Assembly: GCA_017302655.1 (NCBI GenBank)
Contig: JAFLDE010000002.1
Span: 21,993-85,992 of the forward strand
Length of the DNA stretch: 64,000 nucleotides
Direction of reading: 5' to 3'
From: Burkholderiales bacterium
Lineage (GTDB): Bacteria > Pseudomonadota > Gammaproteobacteria > Burkholderiales > Burkholderiaceae_C
Positions 1 to 8,853 of the stretch are shown in pieces (the stretch's first letter is position 1; each line of letters begins with the position of its first letter). The notes under the pieces are model-generated. The model ran no database searches and was not told the origin of the DNA. It saw nothing but the letters and a program-made list of their open reading frames with translations. Position numbers and translations under genes: made by a program.

Positions 1-144
1 GAGGACTTCGCCGCCCTGTCCTTCCTGAACGAGACGGCCGAGCAACTTGGCATGGGTGAGTTCGTGGAACTGGTGCCGGACAACCCGGATCCGAAGGATC
101 TGTTCGGTTTGCTGCGCCTTGACAGCATGGCGGTGGCCGCCTGA
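1..144 (+). CDS. 3' end of an unidentified protein, truncated by the window edge
   Basis: Frame 1 is open from base 1 (EDFAALSFLNETAEQLGMGEFVELVPDNPDPKDLFGLLRLDSMAVAA*) with GC3-rich codons; TGA at 142-144; converges on the S8 gene. Confidence 0.6.
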   Translation, partial: EDFAALSFLNETAEQLGMGEFVELVPDNPDPKDLFGLLRLDSMAVAA

Positions 145-210: not shown

Positions 211-2103
211 TCAGGGTTGCGCGACCGCCTCGCCGAGGATCCAGGGTTCGTCGGGCCGGAGCACCGGCAAGGGCGCATAGGCCTTCGCCTGCACGATGCC
301 AAGCGCTTGCCGCCACTGTTCGGCGCGGCTGGGGCGCGGACCTTCAGCCAGCGCGTTCACGATCTGCCGCGCCGCCACTGGCGCTGCCACGCTCGTGCCA
401 CGCATGCGTACCCAGGTGCCGGACAACACGCCGGCGCCCAGGAGCCCCGGCGTCAGGACGGCTTCATCGGCCGCCGCAAGCAGGTGCACACCACCGGGCC
501 GCGGCACCTTGCCGTCGACGGGTGCGCTGTACCACGCGGCGCGCTGGTTCTCCAGGCTGCCGGCGCCCACCGAGATCGGGTAGCGGCCGGTGCACAGCAC
601 GTTATGCGCCCCTGCGGCCCCCAGGAACAGCCCACGGGCTTGTTCCAAGTAGGACTGCGACACCGGCACGTTGGGCAGCAAGCTGAAGTCGGGCTGATCG
701 CCTTGCACCATCACCCACAAGGGCACCGGTTCGTCGGATCGATTGCGACACGCGAGCGACCAGCATCCGCCGGGGATCTGGCGCCTGCGCGCTCCCGCCA
801 CGGGCGCCAGCGCCAGGCAAGCCCGCCCGCTGGCCAGCACGCTCAGGCGCGCCAGAGCCACGCCGTCTTGCTCCCAACCGATCTGGTATCCGGCACCCAC
901 CCAGGGGGACGGGGCACCTCCGGGCAAGGTGACGCGGAACTGGAGGTCTGGCCTGGACGCGACCGGCCACCAGGCCTCCAGAAAGCTATCCGTTGGATCC
1001 TCGGGCCGCAAACGCCAGCGCACACTGACTGGCTCGGCTTGCTTGCCGCCTGCAACGCTGCCGCTGGCAATCATCGGCTGCCGGCCGCGGTTCCCGGCCG
1101 CAATGAGCACGAGCAGGCCCGGATCCTTGGCCATCAGTTCGTCGATGGCCCGCACCAGCAGCAGGCTGCCGTCTCGAGGTCCGGCCTGCACGCCCAGGCT
1201 GATGTTCACGACCACCAAGGCCTTGGGCGCATGCCGACGCGCCACGCGTCGAATGTGGTGCAGGGCATCGAGCACTTGCAGTGCCGACGGAGCGCCGGTC
1301 GCCTGCCCGGGGAGCCCCCCCGGGACCGACACCAGCACCAGGGCTGCTCGGGAGGCCGCGTCGGCCAGCGCCGGCTTGGCCGCCCCGGGGAAGGCCGCCT
1401 TGAGCGGCAGCCCGGCCAAGGTGTCCAACACATGTGTGGCGTGATCGACCCCGCCTTGATCCGCGGTCCAAGCCCGGTCCGACATGTCGAGTTCGCCGAG
1501 GTACAGCGCGCGTTCCTGGCTTGCATCGCGCGCGCGCCCGCACAGGGCCTTCAGCGCGGCAGCGTCAAGCTCCCGGCCGTAGCCGGCCGGAGGGCGCTTC
1601 CATGGGCCTGAACGGGCGGCCTGCGTCTGGTCCCAGTAGCTGAGGAGGCGGGTCGGCGCATCGTCGGCGTCGCTTTCGCGAAACGCGCGGTTCAAGGGAG
1701 CGCCGCCGCTGTCGATCACCCCTACGACGACAGCTGGGGGCGGACCGCCGGACCCCACATCGGCCGACGGCGCTGCGACGGGCTGCGGCGCTTCCGCCAA
1801 GGGCTGCGAAAACTCGATGCGATCAACCAGAGCCGCCAACTCGGGCAAGGCAGAGAGCTGCGCCCAAACGGGCTCGACCGATAGATCGACGGGCCAATCG
1901 TCTTGCCAACGAATCGCCAGTTGGAGTTTCAACACTTGCTGGCGCAGGGTCGAGGCATCGCCTCGATGACGAATGAGCAAGGGCAACCAGGCAGTGGAAG
2001 CCTCCTGTGCGCCAAACACGCCGGCGAAGGCATCCGCCCGCGCCCAATCCATGTAGACGTCGTCTTCAAACGCGCGCGGCGCGCTCCAGCGCGAATCGAT
2101 CAC
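211..2103 (-). CDS. S8 (subtilisin-like) serine peptidase, no signal peptide
   Basis: Catalytic motifs VGVIDSGG (Asp), DHATHVLDTLAG (His), AAGN (oxyanion Asn), GTSVAAP (Ser). Start placed at GTG 2103 because it forms a GTGA overlap with the upstream stop at 2100-2102 (ORF track starts at 2193). Confidence 0.9.
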   Translation of the reverse strand: MIDSRWSAPRAFEDDVYMDWARADAFAGVFGAQEASTAWLPLLIRHRGDASTLRQQVLKLQLAIRWQDDWPVDLSVEPVWAQLSALPELAALVDRIEFSQPLAEAPQPVAAPSADVGSGGPPPAVVVGVIDSGGAPLNRAFRESDADDAPTRLLSYWDQTQAARSGPWKRPPAGYGRELDAAALKALCGRARDASQERALYLGELDMSDRAWTADQGGVDHATHVLDTLAGLPLKAAFPGAAKPALADAASRAALVLVSVPGGLPGQATGAPSALQVLDALHHIRRVARRHAPKALVVVNISLGVQAGPRDGSLLLVRAIDELMAKDPGLLVLIAAGNRGRQPMIASGSVAGGKQAEPVSVRWRLRPEDPTDSFLEAWWPVASRPDLQFRVTLPGGAPSPWVGAGYQIGWEQDGVALARLSVLASGRACLALAPVAGARRRQIPGGCWSLACRNRSDEPVPLWVMVQGDQPDFSLLPNVPVSQSYLEQARGLFLGAAGAHNVLCTGRYPISVGAGSLENQRAAWYSAPVDGKVPRPGGVHLLAAADEAVLTPGLLGAGVLSGTWVRMRGTSVAAPVAARQIVNALAEGPRPSRAEQWRQALGIVQAKAYAPLPVLRPDEPWILGEAVAQP

Positions 2104-3314
2104 CACTCTTCGCAGGCCAGTTGCCACAACAGGCGCCAGTCCTGGCTTGGGTCCACCGCGTGCGCGGAATCCAGGAATCCACACAACGGCCAAGCGCCGA
2201 TCTGATCGATGTCAGGCGCCTCAGCGTCCACCTGTTCCATCCAGGCCCCCAACTCGCTCGCGTCCTCCCCTGGCAAGCCAAAGCGTGCGCAGCAAGCCTG
2301 TGCATCCTTGTCATCACACAGCGTGCGCAAGTGGCGAAAGACAGCCTGCCCCAACAGGCGCCCGGCCATGGAGTCCACCGGGAAGTGAACCCCGGCGACC
2401 ACGCGGTTCTCTGCGATGCGCAGCGCCATCCGATCGAGCATCGCCGGCCGGGGGTCTCGCGTGAAGCGACGGCGCATCCAGTGCCCGATCAGGGCGGCCA
2501 CCAGATGGCTTTCCCCGGCATGTCCACTCGGCAGCGACGCATGCCCGGGGACCTCGACATGCGGCATCAGGTCCGGCCGCAAATGGTGCGGCCGCGCGCA
2601 GCCCAGCATGTGCTTCACACGCTGCTGCAGGGCCTGCTGAAAGGCCAGTGCAGCGGCAAGGAACTCCAGACTGCGCGGTCTGCGCTCCCAAGGCACGGCA
2701 GCCACGGCCAGCAGAAATGGCATGGCGGCCCCGGCCTGGGCAATGATCTCGCCTGACCGGGATTCGCGCAGCGGAAGCAAGGCATCCACCGCTTCGACTT
2801 GCCGCGCGAAAAAGGCCTCGGGGGGACGCTGCATCTCGACCCACGCCACCCAGGCACCAGCTGAAGGGGACCATCGCTCAACGAGTGCCCTGTCTGGTCC
2901 CTCTGCGGCAAGCACGCGCACGCCTGAAAGCGCATCAGCCAGCAGGCTTTGGGCGCGAGGGCTGCTGGCCCAGGTGCGCCAGGACTCGCCATCAAGCTTC
3001 GGGTGCCGCACGGGCTGCGCTTCGGTACCTGCTTCCGGCAGCAAAGCACCGCGCGCCGCAGCAAGCAGGTTGGCCATCGTGTCCAAGCTGGGCTCACCAG
3101 CGGTGCCTGCTGCCTGTGAGGCCTGTCCTTGACCGACCGGAGGGCCGCTGACCACGACCACGTTGGGCCATACACCCGCGTTGGGCCATACACCTGCGTT
3201 CGGCCACACACCCGCGTTGGGCCACACACCTGCGTTGGGCCACACACCCGCGTTGGGCCATACACCTGCGTTGGGCCATACACCCGCAAGAGGAAGCAAA
3301 GGATTGGGCGGCAT
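2100..3314 (-). CDS. PAP2 / vanadium-dependent haloperoxidase superfamily protein with N-terminal (AGVWPN)x7 repeat
   Basis: All three PAP2 motifs: K-HMLGCA-RP, PSGH, NR-VVAGV-H-FPV-D. ATG at 3314 follows GAAAGG RBS-like sequence (ORF track starts at TTG 3332). Confidence 0.85.
   Translation of the reverse strand: MPPNPLLPLAGVWPNAGVWPNAGVWPNAGVWPNAGVWPNAGVWPNAGVWPNVVVVSGPPVGQGQASQAAGTAGEPSLDTMANLLAAARGALLPEAGTEAQPVRHPKLDGESWRTWASSPRAQSLLADALSGVRVLAAEGPDRALVERWSPSAGAWVAWVEMQRPPEAFFARQVEAVDALLPLRESRSGEIIAQAGAAMPFLLAVAAVPWERRPRSLEFLAAALAFQQALQQRVKHMLGCARPHHLRPDLMPHVEVPGHASLPSGHAGESHLVAALIGHWMRRRFTRDPRPAMLDRMALRIAENRVVAGVHFPVDSMAGRLLGQAVFRHLRTLCDDKDAQACCARFGLPGEDASELGAWMEQVDAEAPDIDQIGAWPLCGFLDSAHAVDPSQDWRLLWQLACEEW
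3161..3286 (-). repeat. Seven tandem 18-bp coding repeats encoding A-G-V-W-P-N
   Basis: Plus-strand unit CGTT(G/C)GGCCA(T/C)ACACC(C/T)G repeated head to tail 7 times with no spacers. Confidence 0.97.
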
Positions 3315-3349
3315 GTCGATCGTGCCTTTCAAGGAAAAGGGAAAGCCTC

Positions 3350-5056
3350 TCAGCGCTCAGGAAGCCCTGCGGCGGTCAGCGCCCATGCGAAGTCCGTGGC
3401 ATGCGCCGTCTTCCGTCCGCCATAGGTATCCCAGAAGAGCTTGAGGTTGTACTGAGGCCAAAGCTCCCTGAGTTGCAGCAGGTGTTCGTGAGCCACATGC
3501 AAATTGCCGCTTCGCGCATGCGCGATCGTCAAATAGAAGAGGTTCGGTGCATGCCTTGCGCGCTGGCGCGCAGAGCGCTCTGCAAAGGCCAAGCCTTGAG
3601 GAATGTCGCCACGGGCCAAGTGCACGTGTGCCGCCACGGCATCAAAGAGGTAGCGCCAAGGGTCAAGCGGAGAGAGTGCCAACGCCACCTTGAGCGAGTC
3701 GTGAGCTTCGTCCAGTCGGTCATCAAACGTTGCCTGCAGCGCCGAGAACAGCCAAGCGAAGGCATCGCTCGGATTGGCATCCAGGGCGCGCGCGAGCGCC
3801 GCACGAGCCTCGCTTGGCGGATGCCCCTCCATGATGTGAAGGTAGCCCTGCAAGGCCATTGCCATGGCGCAATAGGGGTCAGCCTCCAAAGCGCGCTGGC
3901 AACAGATGACCGCCTCCGCAACCGCTTCGCGCCGTCGCTGCAAACCCTGCAGTGCAGCCATCACATGCCACTTGGCTGTCCACGCATGCACCAGCGCTTG
4001 GTTCGGTGCTCGCTCACGCAAGCCCTCGAGCAACAGCCGAGACCGCTCAAACGAAGCGGGCGAGAGTCGGTGCATGAGCTGGCTGGCACCGATGAGGAGT
4101 TGGTGATCCTCCAGGCTCTGCCAAGCAGGCAACTGAGCGACGCTTAGGGTCTCGCTCATCAGCGCAGCGTGAGCGTCCGCGATCGCGCGCATGAGACCGT
4201 CCGCGCTGCCGGCCAGGAGATCGTCGAGACGCACGCTGATGCGATCGCTCCAAAGCGCGCGTGACTGCCCCTTGGCCAGGACTTCCAGGTTCAGCAGCAG
4301 GGTGCCGCTGTCTCCAAGATGACCCTTGCCGAGCATCACATGGCTGGCGCCGAGCAGGGTGAAGGCGTCCTGCACGGCTCGTGCGGAGTCGGTCAGGCGC
4401 GACGTCGACTCACGCGCAACGACGCGCAAGAGGGCCGAGCGGGCCAGTGAACCGGTCAATGTGTCTGCAATGAGGTCGGCACAAGCTGCGGCGCGCGCGG
4501 GGTCATTGCCGCCGATCTGCGGGCGCAGCACCACCAGTACGTCGCGCAGCGCCACCGGGTCGGGCTGGCCGCTGGCCCCTTCCAAGGGCAGGGCCAGCAC
4601 CTTCAACGGGTCGCTGGCATCGTGACCGAGGTCCACCAGCGGGAGCTCCCAGGTTCGCGACAGGCGGTCGGCGAGGTCGGCACTCAGTCCCACCGCACCC
4701 AGCGGCGCGCGGCGGGCGGCCCGTTCGGCCGCTCGCAGCTCGCTGGCCTGAGGGTTTTCGGTGTCCCGCACCAGGTGCAGACCCATGTGCACAGGGGTGT
4801 GCACCTGCCAGCCCATGAGCAGGCGGCGGGCGACTGAGAGCAAGGCGTCGGCATCAGGCGCGCTCACGGCGGCCGGCAGGGCCTGACGCCAAGGTGCGTC
4901 CGGCAGGGCCTCCTTGAGAGCGTCGGCGATGCGACGCCACCGCTGCTCGATCTGCACAGGTGGCAGGTCATGCCCAAGCTCAGGACAGACCCAAAGCAAA
5001 GCGCCCGTCTGCACATCAGCAGACGTCAGCACGGACACATCGCTCGCCTCTGGCAT
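3350..5056 (-). CDS. Degenerate adenylate/guanylate-cyclase-like domain + TolB-like domain + TPR repeats (sensor/regulator)
   Basis: TolB-N-like block (ADLIADTLTGSLARSALLRVVARESTS...LWSDRI); TPR helices (ALEADPYCAMAMAL, ALDANPSDAFAWL, ALALSPLDPWRY); N-terminus resembles the end of a class III cyclase domain. Start ATG 5056 is uncertain (ORF open to 5242). Confidence 0.75.
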   Translation of the reverse strand: MPEASDVSVLTSADVQTGALLWVCPELGHDLPPVQIEQRWRRIADALKEALPDAPWRQALPAAVSAPDADALLSVARRLLMGWQVHTPVHMGLHLVRDTENPQASELRAAERAARRAPLGAVGLSADLADRLSRTWELPLVDLGHDASDPLKVLALPLEGASGQPDPVALRDVLVVLRPQIGGNDPARAAACADLIADTLTGSLARSALLRVVARESTSRLTDSARAVQDAFTLLGASHVMLGKGHLGDSGTLLLNLEVLAKGQSRALWSDRISVRLDDLLAGSADGLMRAIADAHAALMSETLSVAQLPAWQSLEDHQLLIGASQLMHRLSPASFERSRLLLEGLRERAPNQALVHAWTAKWHVMAALQGLQRRREAVAEAVICCQRALEADPYCAMAMALQGYLHIMEGHPPSEARAALARALDANPSDAFAWLFSALQATFDDRLDEAHDSLKVALALSPLDPWRYLFDAVAAHVHLARGDIPQGLAFAERSARQRARHAPNLFYLTIAHARSGNLHVAHEHLLQLRELWPQYNLKLFWDTYGGRKTAHATDFAWALTAAGLPER

Positions 5057-5365
5057 GCAGTGCCTCCCTGTTACGGCTCTTGCATTGTGAAGCGCAAGCC
5101 ATGTCGACGCTGTTGCATAGAAACCCCGTCTCCAAGGCCTTTTCTTCATGAGGATCGTGCGCTCCGGCGGGCGGCGTTGGCACGTTGCGACGCAGGTGCC
5201 GCCGTCGCCCCTCGCGACTGGGCGGCCGAGCGGATTCATCACAGGCCGAGTCCCGGTGAGCCTTCCGGCTGTCCCCCGTTTCGTTGGCTGGCTCGCTCTT
5301 GACCTTGGTGCTGCGTCAACGCAGGCCAGACTTCGGCGTTGCTGGCACCTCGGTCATCCCGACCG

Positions 5366-5596
5366 ATGGAGCCGACCTTGAGAATCCCTTTGCGCAGCTT
5401 GTCTGTCGTGCTGTTGGCCGTCGTCGGCCTGTCCGGTTGCATCATCATTCCGGCCCACCGACATCATGGCCCACCGCGTGGCGTCGTCGTCATCGAGAGC
5501 CCGCACGCGCACGGGCATGGCCACCGCGGCGGACGGCACCCCGGTCGGGGCGACGGAGGCTACGACCAGCGCGGCTTCGGTCCATACCGCCGCTGA
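5366..5596 (+). CDS. Small His/Gly-rich lipoprotein
   Basis: Signal peptide ending in lipobox LSG-C, then PAHRHHGPPRG...HAHGHGHRGG. Confidence 0.65.
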   Translation: MEPTLRIPLRSLSVVLLAVVGLSGCIIIPAHRHHGPPRGVVVIESPHAHGHGHRGGRHPGRGDGGYDQRGFGPYRR

Positions 5597-5599
5597 CGC

Positions 5600-6019
5600 T
5601 CAGCGGAAGGAGGCCAGCAGGATGTTGGTCTCGGTGTTGGCGATGCCCTTGATGAGCCGCACACGCTCTAGCACCTGGGACAGCTCGGCCATCGAGCCAG
5701 CGCGCAGTTCTGCCAGCAAGTCCCACCGGCCGTTGGTGTCGTGCAGCGCCATCACGGCGGGTTCGCCAAGCAAGGCGGCGGTCACGGCGCGGGTCTGGTT
5801 GCCCTCCACCAGCACGCCCATCCAGGCGCGGATCTGGTCGGGCTCGGCCTCGGGGCGCAAGCGCACCGTGTAGCCGACGATCATTTGCTCGTCCTCGAGC
5901 TTCTTCAGCCGATTCGTCACCGTGCCGCGGCTCACGCCGAGTTTGGCCGCGAGTTGCGCCACGCCAAGGCGGGCGTTGGCGCGCAGCAGGGCGATCAGCT
6001 TGTGGTCGAGGTCGTCCAT
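5600..6019 (-). CDS. Lrp/AsnC family transcriptional regulator
   Basis: MDDLDHKLIALLRANAR...LGVSRGTVTNRLKKLE HTH plus C-terminal RAM domain (TNGRWDLLAE). Confidence 0.95.
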   Translation of the reverse strand: MDDLDHKLIALLRANARLGVAQLAAKLGVSRGTVTNRLKKLEDEQMIVGYTVRLRPEAEPDQIRAWMGVLVEGNQTRAVTAALLGEPAVMALHDTNGRWDLLAELRAGSMAELSQVLERVRLIKGIANTETNILLASFR

Positions 6020-6537
6020 GCGTGCAATGCCTTGTGAAAAACACGGTTGCGATACGAGACGCCGTCGATTCGGTAATCCGTCTCACCAACGTCTTGGTAG
6101 CCCTGTCGCGCGTAGAAGGCCAGCGCGCGCCCATTCCCTTCCCAGGCACTGAGCCAGGAGCAGGCCGCGCCTTGCCCACGCGCCAAGTCCTCCGCGGCCT
6201 TCAGCAAGCGTGCGCCCAGGCCTTGGCACTGCCGTCTTGGGTGCACGTAGAGCCTGAACAACTCGGCACCCTGCAGCGCAGGTCCAGCGCTAGCGCTCGG
6301 CCCGGTCGCTTGCAGTGTGAGGTCGGCAAAGCCTTCCAGCCATCCTTCGGTCTCTGCCACCAGCACGCGCACCCCTGGGTCCTGCAGCCGTGCCGCCAGC
6401 ACCGGCACAGCGAAGCGCTGCTGCACCTCGCTGGCGATGGCGCGGTTCACCCCTTGCGGCACGTAGGTGTCGAGGAAGACATGGCTCGCCAGCAGGCTCA
6501 GCCGTTCTGCATCCAAGGGCGTGGCCAGTCGAATCAA
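5995..6537 (-). CDS. GNAT family N-acetyltransferase
   Basis: LFRLYVHPRRQCQGLGARLL motif A and N..ALAFYARQGY motif. TTG start at 6537 overlaps the upstream TGA (TTGA); 3' end overlaps the Lrp start by 25 nt. Confidence 0.85.
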   Translation of the reverse strand: MIRLATPLDAERLSLLASHVFLDTYVPQGVNRAIASEVQQRFAVPVLAARLQDPGVRVLVAETEGWLEGFADLTLQATGPSASAGPALQGAELFRLYVHPRRQCQGLGARLLKAAEDLARGQGAACSWLSAWEGNGRALAFYARQGYQDVGETDYRIDGVSYRNRVFHKALHAWTTSTTS

Positions 6538-7490
6538 CGGAAGCGCTCGATGTCGCGCGCCAGGTAGAACCATTCCTGCCCTGCCTGTGCCTTGCTGTTG
6601 GGAAAGACGATGCAGCCCGCCACGGGCGCATGCACCGCCTCGCCGCTGGCGCGATGGCCAATCAATTCCCCTTCCGCCACCCGGTCGAAACTGACCCAGG
6701 GCTTGACGAAGTCGTCGTCCACATGATGCTTGTCCTCCACATGGTGCAGGCGCAAGCCGGCCATGCTGTGCACTGCAGGCACGGCACCGTCGATCAAACC
6801 AAAGTGCGTCAGCGTGTTCACGATCGCCTGGTAGGCCACCTCGGGGGCCTCGGTGTCCTGGTGCTGGCCGCATTCCAGCGTCAGTGCCATGCCCCCGGTG
6901 CTGCGCATGTACTCGGTGCTCCCCACGCCGTACTGCTCATCCAGGTCGACGCTGCTGCCCACCTCCCGACCGGCGAAACGCGAACGGCGCTGCGCCACGC
7001 CACCTGCGTAGGTGTCCAGCCAGCCATCCACGCCACGCTGCACACCCAGCACCTTGGCCCAGGCCACCTCCTCGTCGGCCTGACGGACGGGCTGCAGCGG
7101 GCCATCGTTGTTCTCAGGACCCACCATCACGAAAGGCTTGCCGTTGGCCTGGAATGAATGCAAGTCGAGCAGGATCTCGTGCCGTGCCATCAGCGGACAC
7201 AGCCAGTTGGCCACGTGATCCTCGAACTCCTTGGGCTCGTTCGTCGGGCGCAGGCGGCGGTTCAGGTTGCGGTCGCCGTTGCGTTGTTGCTTCTGGTAAG
7301 CCAGCGGGTTGCAGATGGGCACAAACGTGACGCAGCCACGCAGCAAGCGGCGTTCGTCGCGCTCGAATTCGGCAATCAGGCGGCGAATGGCCTGCGTGCC
7401 GCAAACCTCATTGCCGTGCACGGCCCCGGTGACGAGCAGGCGCCGGCCCGGTTCGACGGCGCTGAATTGGGTGGCTTGGAAAGAGTGCAT
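6534..7490 (-). CDS. M14 metallocarboxypeptidase superfamily (succinylglutamate desuccinylase/aspartoacylase-like)
   Basis: GAVHGNE (HxxE), NLNRR, LLDLHS, LTLECG motifs; start ATG 7490. Confidence 0.85.
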   Translation of the reverse strand: MHSFQATQFSAVEPGRRLLVTGAVHGNEVCGTQAIRRLIAEFERDERRLLRGCVTFVPICNPLAYQKQQRNGDRNLNRRLRPTNEPKEFEDHVANWLCPLMARHEILLDLHSFQANGKPFVMVGPENNDGPLQPVRQADEEVAWAKVLGVQRGVDGWLDTYAGGVAQRRSRFAGREVGSSVDLDEQYGVGSTEYMRSTGGMALTLECGQHQDTEAPEVAYQAIVNTLTHFGLIDGAVPAVHSMAGLRLHHVEDKHHVDDDFVKPWVSFDRVAEGELIGHRASGEAVHAPVAGCIVFPNSKAQAGQEWFYLARDIERFR

Positions 7491-7605
7491 GGCCGCCAGT
7501 CTGCCATCTGGGTCCTGGCGATCCCAACCCCATTCGAGCCGGTTATGGGTCGCGCGAAGGCTGCTATGTCTCCGACCCCAGCCAGCCACGTAGCCTTCGC
7601 CCCCG

Positions 7606-8853
7606 ATGCAATCCAAGAATTTCGTCGTCATTGGCGCCGGTGTGGTGGGCCTGACCAGCGCCTGGGCACTGCTGGAGGCCGGCCACCGCGTGCGCATCGT
7701 CGAACGCGATGCGCCAGGCCAAGGTGCCAGCCATGCCAACGGCGGGCAGCTCAGCTATCGCTATGTGTCGCCCTTGGCCGACGCCGGTGTGCCCTTCAAG
7801 GCCATGCGCTGGCTGATGGACCCCGATGGCCCCTTGCGCTTTCGACTGGAAGCCGACCCGGCGCAGTGGAGTTGGCTCGCGCAGTTCCTGCTGAAGTGCC
7901 GCGCCTCGGTGAACCGCCGGGCCACCCAGCGCCTCCTGGCGCTCGGCAGCTTGAGCCAACAGACTTTCCAGGATTGGGCGGCGCAGCTGGACTGGAATGG
8001 ATCAGTGGCGCTGCGCGAACCCGGAAAGCTGGTGATCTACCGCCAGCCCGGCGAGTTCGCCAAGGTCCGTGCCCGCATGGCCGACACCGGTGTCGAGCAA
8101 GCGCTCGATGCGGACGCCTGCGTCGCGCTCGAGCCCGCCCTGACCCACGCCCGCGGCGTGCTGGCAGGCGGCATCTTCACGCCAGGCGAGGCCGTGGCCG
8201 ACTGCCACGCGCTGTGCCTGCACCTGCTTGGCAAGGTGCAAGCCCATCCCGGCTTTGATGGCCTCATTCAGCAAGCCGCCACCGGCTGGAACGTGGAGGC
8301 TGGGCGGCCGCAGTTGCGCACTTCGGGCGGCGAGTTGAAGGCCGACGCTTACCTGATCGCCGCCGGGCTGCACAGCCGGCCGCTGGCTGCGCCGCTGGGC
8401 ATCCGCCTGCCGCTCTACCCGCTCAAGGGCTACAGCCTCACGGCACCGATCCGCGAAGAACACCGCCCACCTGAAGTCAGCGTGACCGACTTCGAACGCA
8501 AGATCCTCTACGCGCGCATGGGCACCCGTCTTCGCGTGGCGGCCATGGCCGACCTCGTGGGCGAGAACCTCGATCTCGACCCGCATCGCCTGGCCTCGCT
8601 GCACCGCTCGGTGCGCGCCATGTTTCCCGATGCAGCTGACTACGACGCCGCCGAACCCTGGGCTGGCTTGCGCCCCGCCACACCCGGCGGCACGCCTATC
8701 CTGGGCGCGAGCCCTTTGCCTGGCGTGTGGCTGAACGTCGGCCACGGCGCACTCGGCTTTACCTTCTCCTTTGCCTCGGCGCGCATCGTGGCGAGTCTGA
8801 TGTCCGGCTTGCCCAGCCCCCTGGCGCTGGATGGCTTCACGCTCGGCACATGA
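7606..8853 (+). CDS. FAD-dependent D-amino acid dehydrogenase (DadA family; resembles the DguA D-glutamate dehydrogenase subgroup)
   Basis: VIGAGVVG dinucleotide motif, ANGGQLSYRYVSPLADAGVP, WAGLRPATP, NVGHGALGFT. Confidence 0.9.
   Translation: MQSKNFVVIGAGVVGLTSAWALLEAGHRVRIVERDAPGQGASHANGGQLSYRYVSPLADAGVPFKAMRWLMDPDGPLRFRLEADPAQWSWLAQFLLKCRASVNRRATQRLLALGSLSQQTFQDWAAQLDWNGSVALREPGKLVIYRQPGEFAKVRARMADTGVEQALDADACVALEPALTHARGVLAGGIFTPGEAVADCHALCLHLLGKVQAHPGFDGLIQQAATGWNVEAGRPQLRTSGGELKADAYLIAAGLHSRPLAAPLGIRLPLYPLKGYSLTAPIREEHRPPEVSVTDFERKILYARMGTRLRVAAMADLVGENLDLDPHRLASLHRSVRAMFPDAADYDAAEPWAGLRPATPGGTPILGASPLPGVWLNVGHGALGFTFSFASARIVASLMSGLPSPLALDGFTLGT

Follow-up and report, generated by a model that had tools for sequence, protein, structure and literature searches.

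Why does an apparently soluble bacterial enzyme carry seven identical copies of a hexapeptide at its N-terminus, and why does its gene lie between those of a putative signal transducer and of a subtilisin-type protease? The question is raised by three open reading frames (ORFs) on the minus strand of the window, i.e. the whole 64,000-nucleotide stretch analyzed here (Burkholderiales bacterium, contig JAFLDE010000002.1, positions 21,993 to 85,992). In the window ORF list, the three ORFs are co-oriented and follow each other head to tail. Gene 1 encodes a tetratricopeptide repeat (TPR) protein, gene 2 a PAP2-fold enzyme preceded by (AGVWPN)x7, and gene 3 an S8 serine protease. A preliminary description of this locus proposed either (a) that the protease excises Trp-containing hexapeptides modified by a haloperoxidase-type PAP2 domain, or (b) that the genes form a sensor-protease-effector cascade in which cleavage of the repeat switches on the enzyme.

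The three genes look like an undescribed internal signaling switch that uses a repeated peptide as an address label. In the reading that we prefer, with a probability of roughly 0.4, the switch would be cytoplasmic, the repeat tail would serve as a label that differs between lineages and fits the end of the TPR protein, and a protease resembling the clostridial Csp proteins would process the N-terminal region of the PAP2 protein.

Conservation of the trio and of its repeat tail

Loci were counted by their encoded PAP2 relatives in a scan that used one genome per species. At least 527 loci were obtained, mostly in Alpha- and Betaproteobacteria; outside these classes, the trio was found in single Anaerolineae and Myxococcota metagenome-assembled genomes (MAGs). 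Gene order was analyzed in 85 loci, comprising the best 80 of the at least 527 and five from protein look-ups, with the three proteins of the window as queries. The order TPR, PAP2, S8 on one strand was found in about 75 of the 85 loci, the exceptions being mostly due to contig ends, and the intergenic gaps within the trio were typically −4 to about 50 nt. Thirty additional loci from the window's own family displayed the same gene order. The TPR and S8 genes are therefore conserved neighbors of PAP2 homologues, a point that the preliminary description had put forward for checking. A fourth conserved gene was looked for beside the trio and none was found. NCBIfam provided no specific family for any of the three proteins, and no naming or description of the module was found in Pfam, NCBIfam, PADLOC or the searchable literature. 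The proposal that the three genes form an uncharacterized, functionally linked three-gene system holds.

The array of the window was detected by Tandem Repeats Finder (TRF) as an 18-bp unit repeated 7.1 times (positions 3161–3287, score 205). Its copies vary at three nucleotide columns only, all of them synonymous. Residues 1–72 of the protein had a predicted local distance difference test score (pLDDT) below 50 in the AlphaFold model and are predicted to be disordered. To expose N-terminal repeats in homologues, each PAP2 ORF was read from its first start codon. A clear N-terminal tandem peptide repeat was present in 110 of 116 homologous loci, most of the exceptions being cut by contig ends. 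The period of these 110 arrays was three residues in 81 cases, four in 11 and six in 14. There were 69 distinct units and a median of nine copies; the repeat thus varies between genomes, a point that the preliminary description had proposed to test. Typical units are GGF, GGA, SGD, AKT, and SKS. In a more diverse sample, a tripeptide was present at least three times in 26 of 38 tails and in 0 of 38 control segments of equal length, although perfect repeats were less common in this sample.

Within arrays, 272 variable nucleotide columns were synonymous-only and 48 were non-synonymous. Nearly all wobble positions were scrambled; the (GGA)x13 array of locus L042, for example, is encoded by 12 different DNA units. 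These sequences indicate that the unit peptide itself is under selection and that the arrays are not the product of fresh slippage, because the copies match perfectly at the peptide level while their synonymous sites are scrambled. In L042, L069, L022, L034, and most other arrays, scrambling of synonymous codons is almost maximal and extends to rare Gly codons in high-GC genomes, as though repetition at the DNA level were selected against. The arrays of the window and of locus L125 are less scrambled. L125 contains five identical adjacent DNA units, which suggests that its array was recently expanded.

The unit differs even between near relatives of the window. L125, which is 73% identical, carries (AGLWPN)x8, and L126 (67% identical) carries AGVWP[N/S]. 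The unit is (ATVWPx)x6 in the syntenic locus L002 and (AGLWGQ)x5 in L010, and two genomes of the same genus harbor ASLWPR and AGIGRT. These comparisons indicate that the whole array switches unit between close relatives. Two genomes examined each contain two full modules, and the units differ in both of them (AGVWPN and QPH[R/L] in the genome of the window, SAT and HSS in G144). Of the copies in a third genome (G098), one carries an imperfect repeat containing NPPV, and the other lacks both an obvious repeat and an S8 neighbor.

The most unusual feature of the module is thus a perfect peptide repeat that is held identical by selection while its DNA is scrambled and its unit differs among close relatives. 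Such a repeat points to a recognition code, without a described parallel in proteobacterial signaling.

The tail is followed by a helix, LDTMANLLAAARGAL, which is the window counterpart of the family motif AL(I/L)TxRDGIVG found after the tails in most lineages. The public gene call for the PAP2 protein of the window genome (P0001) comprises 244 of the 404 residues and starts at an internal Met. It lacks the tail, the follower helix and the N-terminal subdomain. The tail is likewise missing from the gene calls of 39 of 77 family representative proteins. Gene callers often miss the tail, and the feature is therefore largely invisible in databases.

Covariation of the tail with the end of the TPR protein

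Loci L045 and L053 harbor near-identical operons (99% identity for the PAP2 core, 97% for the S8 protease) with different tails, (GAF)n and (GAY)n, respectively. Their operon DNA is 92–98% identical except in a single block of about 450 bp, located from −300 to +150 around the PAP2 start, where identity drops to 65–76%. The number of synonymous substitutions per synonymous site (dS) was 2.08 in the last 107 codons of the TPR gene, 1.95 in the tail, and 0.15–0.22 elsewhere. The divergent block ends exactly at the end of the tail. This pattern is the signature of a swapped cassette comprising the end of the TPR gene and the tail. Two more small divergent blocks were present in the TPR gene of this pair (codons 1–45 and 201–260; dS 0.43–0.55, ratio of non-synonymous to synonymous substitution rates about 0.4). 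One is at the extreme N-terminus and the other in the linker following the winged helix-turn-helix (wHTH) domain, both separate from the cassette.

Hypervariable specificity cassettes are present in staphylococcal agrB-agrD-agrC and Bacillus comQXP, in which a contiguous divergent block likewise spans the ligand segment and the adjoining part of the receptor between conserved flanks, and in which allelic types differ among close relatives. The proteins are unrelated to those of the module, however, and the block of the module extends over the sensor gene's 3′ end and the enzyme gene's 5′ end. Hypervariable regions of agr are mentioned in a passage of PMC6834553.

The association was also evaluated with 24 to 26 independent closest pairs of loci, by comparing the last 100 TPR residues with the preceding 230 (one-sided tests). 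The last 100 residues were relatively less conserved in pairs with different units (medians of about −0.05 versus 0.00; p 0.003 and 0.007). For the first 100 PAP2 residues following the tail, which are equally adjacent to it, only a trend was observed (p 0.098). The asymmetry between the TPR end (p 0.007) and the PAP2 N-terminus (p 0.098) is suggestive but not decisive. In three cases, the TPR end followed the tail unit in its grouping, in conflict with the rest of the operon: L053 (GAY) clustered with other GAY loci, L059 (FSG) with L022 (FGG), and L050 (GLS) with L080 (AGL).

According to the preferred reading, gene 2 would encode a soluble acid-phosphatase-like enzyme with a disordered tail of identical short units. 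As a recognition label specific to the lineage, the tail would fit the last TPR repeats of the transducer encoded immediately upstream. This transducer would carry a variable output, which in relatives is an active cyclase or a DNA-binding wHTH domain and in the window a degenerate cyclase. The Csp-like protease would remove or trim the tail from the N-terminal region of the phosphatase, leading to an irreversible change in what the TPR domain holds, and the phosphatase would probably be freed or activated. Contact between the tail and the TPR domain, cleavage of the PAP2 protein by the protease and the direction of signaling are the steps of this scheme that we infer.

Several observations weigh against this scheme. 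The TPR end and the tail adjoin each other in the DNA, and co-inheritance by recombination alone could produce covariation without contact. A mutual information scan with coarse unit classes revealed no excess for the TPR protein over the PAP2 core or the S8 protease (mean values of 0.21, 0.24, and 0.23, respectively). Unit changes counted by parsimony numbered 62 on the tree of the TPR end and 64 on each of those of the TPR middle, PAP2 core, and S8 protease, a comparison made powerless by the occurrence of 57 units among 91 loci. The protease does not visibly track the tail unit, as illustrated by its conservation across the GAF/GAY switch. Finally, the output domain of the transducer is degenerate in the window.

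These observations bear on the main rival, a plain zymogen activation in which the tail and linker are an inhibitory propeptide removed by the Csp-like protease, much as CspB activates pro-SleC, and in which the TPR protein has no contact with the tail, its role being confined to operon regulation or to a downstream step. Covariation would then be due to linkage, an account that the adjacency of the two segments and the negative mutual information and parsimony results would fit, as would the fold and intact triad of the protease and the N-terminal, disordered nature of the tail. However, a propeptide requires neither identical units under purifying selection nor 69 different units. The divergent block of L045/L053 includes the TPR end and stops exactly at the end of the tail, and the TPR end clusters by unit in three cases. 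We regard zymogen activation as somewhat unlikely, although it ranks first among the alternatives.

Acidic tails, (SGD)n or (GGE)n, characterize a sub-group comprising loci L014, L018, L036, L051, and L065, in which the sole TPR-like hit is weak and located upstream on the opposite strand. This possible variant architecture could serve to tell function apart from linkage.

Designed helical repeat proteins bind four to six tandem tripeptide repeats with nM to pM affinity (PMC10115654), and the reading of a repeat tail by a solenoid is therefore physically plausible. In these binders, a helical solenoid reads 4–6 tandem copies, one unit per repeat, thereby offering a physical model for the tail and the TPR domain; they are man-made, whereas the binding in the natural module is putative. 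A stricter version of the preferred reading, in which repeat reads repeat, can be formulated on this basis. The TPR solenoid would bind the tail in register, one unit per structural repeat, providing a private and evolvable address code that is exchanged by swaps of the ~450 bp cassette. Modules would coexist without cross-talk, and the protease would erase the address irreversibly. We consider this version unlikely. If correct, it would define a new principle of insulation of intracellular signals in bacteria and a natural counterpart of the designed repeat-peptide binders. The less specific pairing of tail and TPR domain would, if true, already provide synthetic biology with a new class of orthogonal protein-peptide pairs, reveal a new route from proteolysis to a cyclic nucleotide or transcriptional output, and give Csp-type convertases a role beyond spore germination.

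The peptide could also act in free form. TPR receptors of Firmicutes bind short peptides, and the protease might cut the array into tri- to hexapeptide copies sensed by the TPR protein, which would switch its cyclase or DNA-binding output. Identical units would yield a single product, a variable output domain is borne by a constant sensor, and co-resident modules have distinct units, all features expected of such a code. The RRNPP cassettes (Rap-Phr, PlcR-PapR, NprR-NprX, AimR-AimP) similarly associate a TPR sensor gene with the gene of a presumed short-peptide ligand, the peptides are lineage-specific, and subtilisin-type proteases participate in their maturation. In contrast, the module carries its peptide as a tandem array fused to an enzyme, not as a small pro-peptide for secretion, and it involves neither export nor import; the hosts are Proteobacteria, and a class III cyclase or an OmpR-type wHTH domain provides the output. 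The TPR protein gave generic TPR hits only, no signal peptide was apparent, and the locus contains no exporter or Opp genes; the module may operate in the manner of an RRNPP cassette but does not belong to this group. Since, in addition, the protease does not covary with the unit and tripeptides such as GGA are poor candidates for specific ligands, the free-peptide code, which comes next after zymogen activation, is in our view quite improbable.

Folds of the two enzymes and output of the transducer

Gene 2 matched the Pfam PAP2 family above the cut-off (4.5e-14). The three signature motifs, KxxxxxxRP, PSGH, and SRxxxxxHxxxD, are all present, in agreement with the complete active site noted in the preliminary description, and their residues are mostly invariant in 78 sequences. 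The core of the AlphaFold2 (AF2) model was confident (pLDDT >90) and displayed the helical PAP2 fold. In Foldseek searches, the best Protein Data Bank (PDB) matches were class A acid phosphatases (7f17, 7f18, 1d2t, 2a96), with E values of 2e-6 to 1e-3 and template modeling (TM) scores of 0.6–0.67. Vanadium haloperoxidase chains (4cit, 9l8x, 8cxl, 1qi9) ranked 35th or lower (E 4e-3 to 5e-2, TM 0.2–0.33). The PAP2 protein of the window thus displays neither its closest structural similarity to vanadium haloperoxidases nor their two-bundle architecture, and it lacks a VCPO_2nd Pfam hit, although many relatives have this domain on record. The PAP2 protein is more likely to be a phosphatase than a halogenase, because the fold matches to acid phosphatases are much stronger than those to haloperoxidases. 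It shares the PAP2 fold and the motifs KxxxxxxRP, PSGH, and RxxxxxHxxxD with both the class A non-specific acid phosphatases (PhoN, PhoC, EB-NSAP) and the haloperoxidases. It differs from them by the apparent lack of a signal peptide and the presence of an additional N-terminal alpha/beta subdomain, the follower helix and the repeat tail, and its match to the haloperoxidases is much weaker than that to the phosphatases.

These comparisons bear on alternative (a) of the preliminary description, according to which the PAP2/haloperoxidase domain would modify its own repeat, as in a fused precursor of a peptide that is made on the ribosome and modified post-translationally (RiPP), and the S8 protease would release the modified peptides as a natural product. 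Fused repeat-core precursors exist (BURP-domain cyclases, borosins), S8 enzymes process RiPPs, PatG is among the weak fold matches of the protease (E 1e-5), and the VCPO_2nd domain occurs in relatives. The locus does contain a core-like repeat array, but a conserved modifiable residue, a transporter and a member of any known RiPP tailoring family were not found. Trp, the residue expected to be halogenated, is absent from most units, 81 of the 110 arrays are built from tripeptides, and many units consist of G, A, and S only, leaving no modifiable residue common to the units. The proximity of the PAP2 core to acid phosphatases (E 2e-6 and TM 0.62–0.67, versus E 4e-3 or worse for haloperoxidases) also speaks against this idea, as do the absence of conserved transporter, immunity or further tailoring genes adjoining the trio and the cytoplasmic appearance of the proteins. 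In its specifics, alternative (a) is thus not supported; it is weak and, in our estimate, very improbable.

Gene 3 matched Pfam Peptidase_S8 (7.5e-7; 29.2 bits for a cut-off of 21.8). The Asp-His-Ser triad, in this order, and the oxyanion Asn were conserved in 71 of 71 aligned S8 relatives, confirming the intact triad previously described (D131, H221, S571). The AF2 model had a mean pLDDT of 89.6 and a predicted TM score of 0.93, and comprised an alpha/beta prodomain (residues 1–98) and a beta-rich region (residues ~345–520). The top ten PDB matches were all Clostridium CspB, CspA, and CspC chains (E 4e-21 to 9e-18, TM 0.64–0.70). The next subtilase had an E value of 4e-8, i.e. a lead of 13 orders of magnitude for Csp. 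The CspB-like architecture, a prodomain followed by a subtilase domain with an inserted beta (jelly-roll) domain, is matched by the model.

Csp proteins are dedicated convertases, CspB being responsible for the activation of pro-SleC. The Csp-like fold fits a single-substrate processing role for the S8 protease. Both systems associate a protease that has a prodomain, predicted to be retained here, as well as a beta-rich insert, with one partner enzyme, whose N-terminal pro-region is cut in the case of pro-SleC and predicted to be cut here. The differences are that the hosts of the module are Gram-negative and non-sporulating, that the setting is cytoplasmic, that sequence identity is 14–17%, that a repeat-tailed phosphatase of the PAP2 fold, rather than a cortex lytic enzyme, is the partner, and that a TPR transducer is included. 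A cleavage motif shared by the end of the S8 prodomain (LGxP or LSQP) and the PAP2 junction was looked for, and none was convincing. The cascade proposed as alternative (b) is compatible with the fold of the protease and the variable output of the TPR protein, its cleavage step being a prediction.

The TPR protein gave weak Pfam TPR matches, and generic TPR hits only in Pfam and NCBIfam. Its N-terminus had no Pfam hit even at E 10. Comparison by hhalign of the N-terminal alignment of the window clade (A4) with that of the cyclase domains of relatives (A5) gave a probability of 94% and an E value of 1.4e-7. In the window clade, other residues take the place of the GD-motif Asp that binds metal and of the VN-motif Asn. 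These alignments indicate that the domain is a degenerate class III cyclase rather than an active one: the relationship in fold or sequence is retained, but the catalytic set (metal-binding Asp, transition-state Asn/Arg) is incomplete. The preliminary description had seen a degenerate cyclase, TolB and TPR protein in gene 1; the first and last of these assignments are supported, whereas the TolB-like part is a motif resemblance that no tool confirmed. In relatives, the N-terminal domain is an OmpR-type wHTH (Trans_reg_C) in Pelagimonas, and a Guanylate_cyc domain in Bradyrhizobium-like and Polaromonas loci as well as in the second module of the window genome. The output domain of the TPR transducer thus varies among relatives between cyclase, wHTH, and degenerate forms.

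Gene boundaries, genomic setting and distribution

The features of the locus are listed in Table 1. The gene boundaries agree with those first described (three co-oriented genes, a 35-nt gap between the TPR stop and the PAP2 ATG, and a GTGA overlap formed by the GTG start of gene 3 and the PAP2 stop). The GAAAGG sequence resembling a ribosome binding site (RBS) is located 10 nt upstream from the ATG of gene 2. A longer ORF starting at a GTG codon, up to position 5242, was considered for the TPR gene and rejected; its 62 additional codons are not conserved. The start was placed at ATG 5056, the exact point from which the sequence resembles that of the syntenic relative L002.

Table 1. Coordinates of the features identified in the window.
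Feature	Position	Strand	Basis
Gene 1, signal-transducer-like TPR protein, 568 aa	3350..5056	-	ORF; start from alignment to L002; TPR matches
Gene 1 layout: N-terminal degenerate class III cyclase-like domain, middle region, C-terminal TPRs	3350..5056	-	
Degenerate cyclase-homology domain, ~residues 1-160	4577..5056	-	hhalign A4 vs A5; BLAST to cyclase domain of paralogue
Last ~100 residues of TPR protein; segment changing together with tail unit in relatives	3353..3652	-	L045/L053 mosaic; sister-pair test; nearest-neighbor incongruence
35-nt spacer with RBS-like GAAAGG	3315..3349	-	sequence reading
Gene 2, soluble PAP2-fold enzyme with N-terminal repeat tail, 404 aa	2100..3314	-	Pfam PAP2; AF2 model; PDB matches
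Tail (AGVWPN)x7, residues 10-51 of gene 2	3162..3287	-	TRF; synonymous-only copy differences; predicted disordered
Follower helix LDTMANLLAAARGAL	3042..3086	-	A3 alignment consensus; helix 77-91 in model; N-terminal sequences
PAP2 catalytic helical core (K234, R241-P242, S263-G264-H265, R304, H310, D314)	2310..2819	-	invariant A3 columns; codon check
Gene 3, Csp-like S8 serine protease, 630 aa	211..2103	-	Pfam S8; AF2; Foldseek
Gene 3 layout: prodomain, subtilase domain, beta-rich insert	211..2103	-	
S8 Asp131	1711-1713	-	invariant in 71 sequences; codon check
S8 His221	1441-1443	-	invariant in 71 sequences; codon check
S8 oxyanion Asn338	1090-1092	-	invariant in 71 sequences; codon check
S8 catalytic Ser571 in GTSVAAP	391..393	-	invariant in 71 sequences; codon check

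In a Kyte-Doolittle scan, the only method applied, no signal peptide or transmembrane helix was apparent in the three proteins (maxima of 1.1–1.85), as the preliminary description had noted for signal peptides. The trio is flanked upstream by a gene encoding an AsnC-type regulator and downstream by a convergent ornithine cyclodeaminase gene. A scan for promoters and terminators revealed nothing exceeding chance. A terminator-like hairpin at window positions 86–102 on the plus strand lies in the interval that separates the end of the S8 gene from the convergent ornithine cyclodeaminase gene; hairpins of this kind are no more numerous than expected by chance.

The module is patchily distributed in the window's family (51 of 301 genomes and 43 of 201 genera). 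Synteny within the genus was looked for and none was found; the same-genus copies in G221 and G031 share about 43% identity and have different neighborhoods. The G+C content at third codon positions was 0.75, 0.73, and 0.80 for the three genes and 0.85 for the median of ORF proxies in the window, which bears out the earlier impression that A/T-ending codons are more frequent in the trio. Patchiness, lack of synteny and lower third-position G+C content than in neighboring genes would be in keeping with a module for anti-phage defense or abortive infection, whose effector, triggered by a protease, would be set free upon infection. PADLOC returned a sole hit, IetS (E 0.017, 11 bits), which is not significant. 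Moreover, the neighbors of the trio are metabolic genes, not defense islands, and the cyclase and wHTH outputs point to ordinary signaling. A role in defense is a weak idea and the least probable of those considered here.

Exhaustive search of 1.84 billion cluster representatives (50% identity clusters) identified 1,132 proteins of the PAP2 family at E ≤ 1e-10. The possibility that the module evolves faster than its neighbors was considered at the syntenic locus L002 and rejected, since the module proteins are 46–62% identical and the neighbors 43–86%.

The second complete module of the window genome (L089) is located on contig C201, positions 3005–8039. It encodes a TPR protein with a Pfam-detectable cyclase domain (P0078), a PAP2 protein with (QPH[R/L])x13 (P0077), and an S8 protease (P0079). 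The PAP2 homologues of L026 (positions 5653–6894) and L040 (positions 5830–6978) each contain one in-frame stop and may be pseudogenes or result from sequencing errors. In a Polaromonas MAG (L016, positions 4692–6128), the tail comprises more than 30 copies of LQG, and the S8 match is located 3 kb away rather than adjacent to the PAP2 gene.

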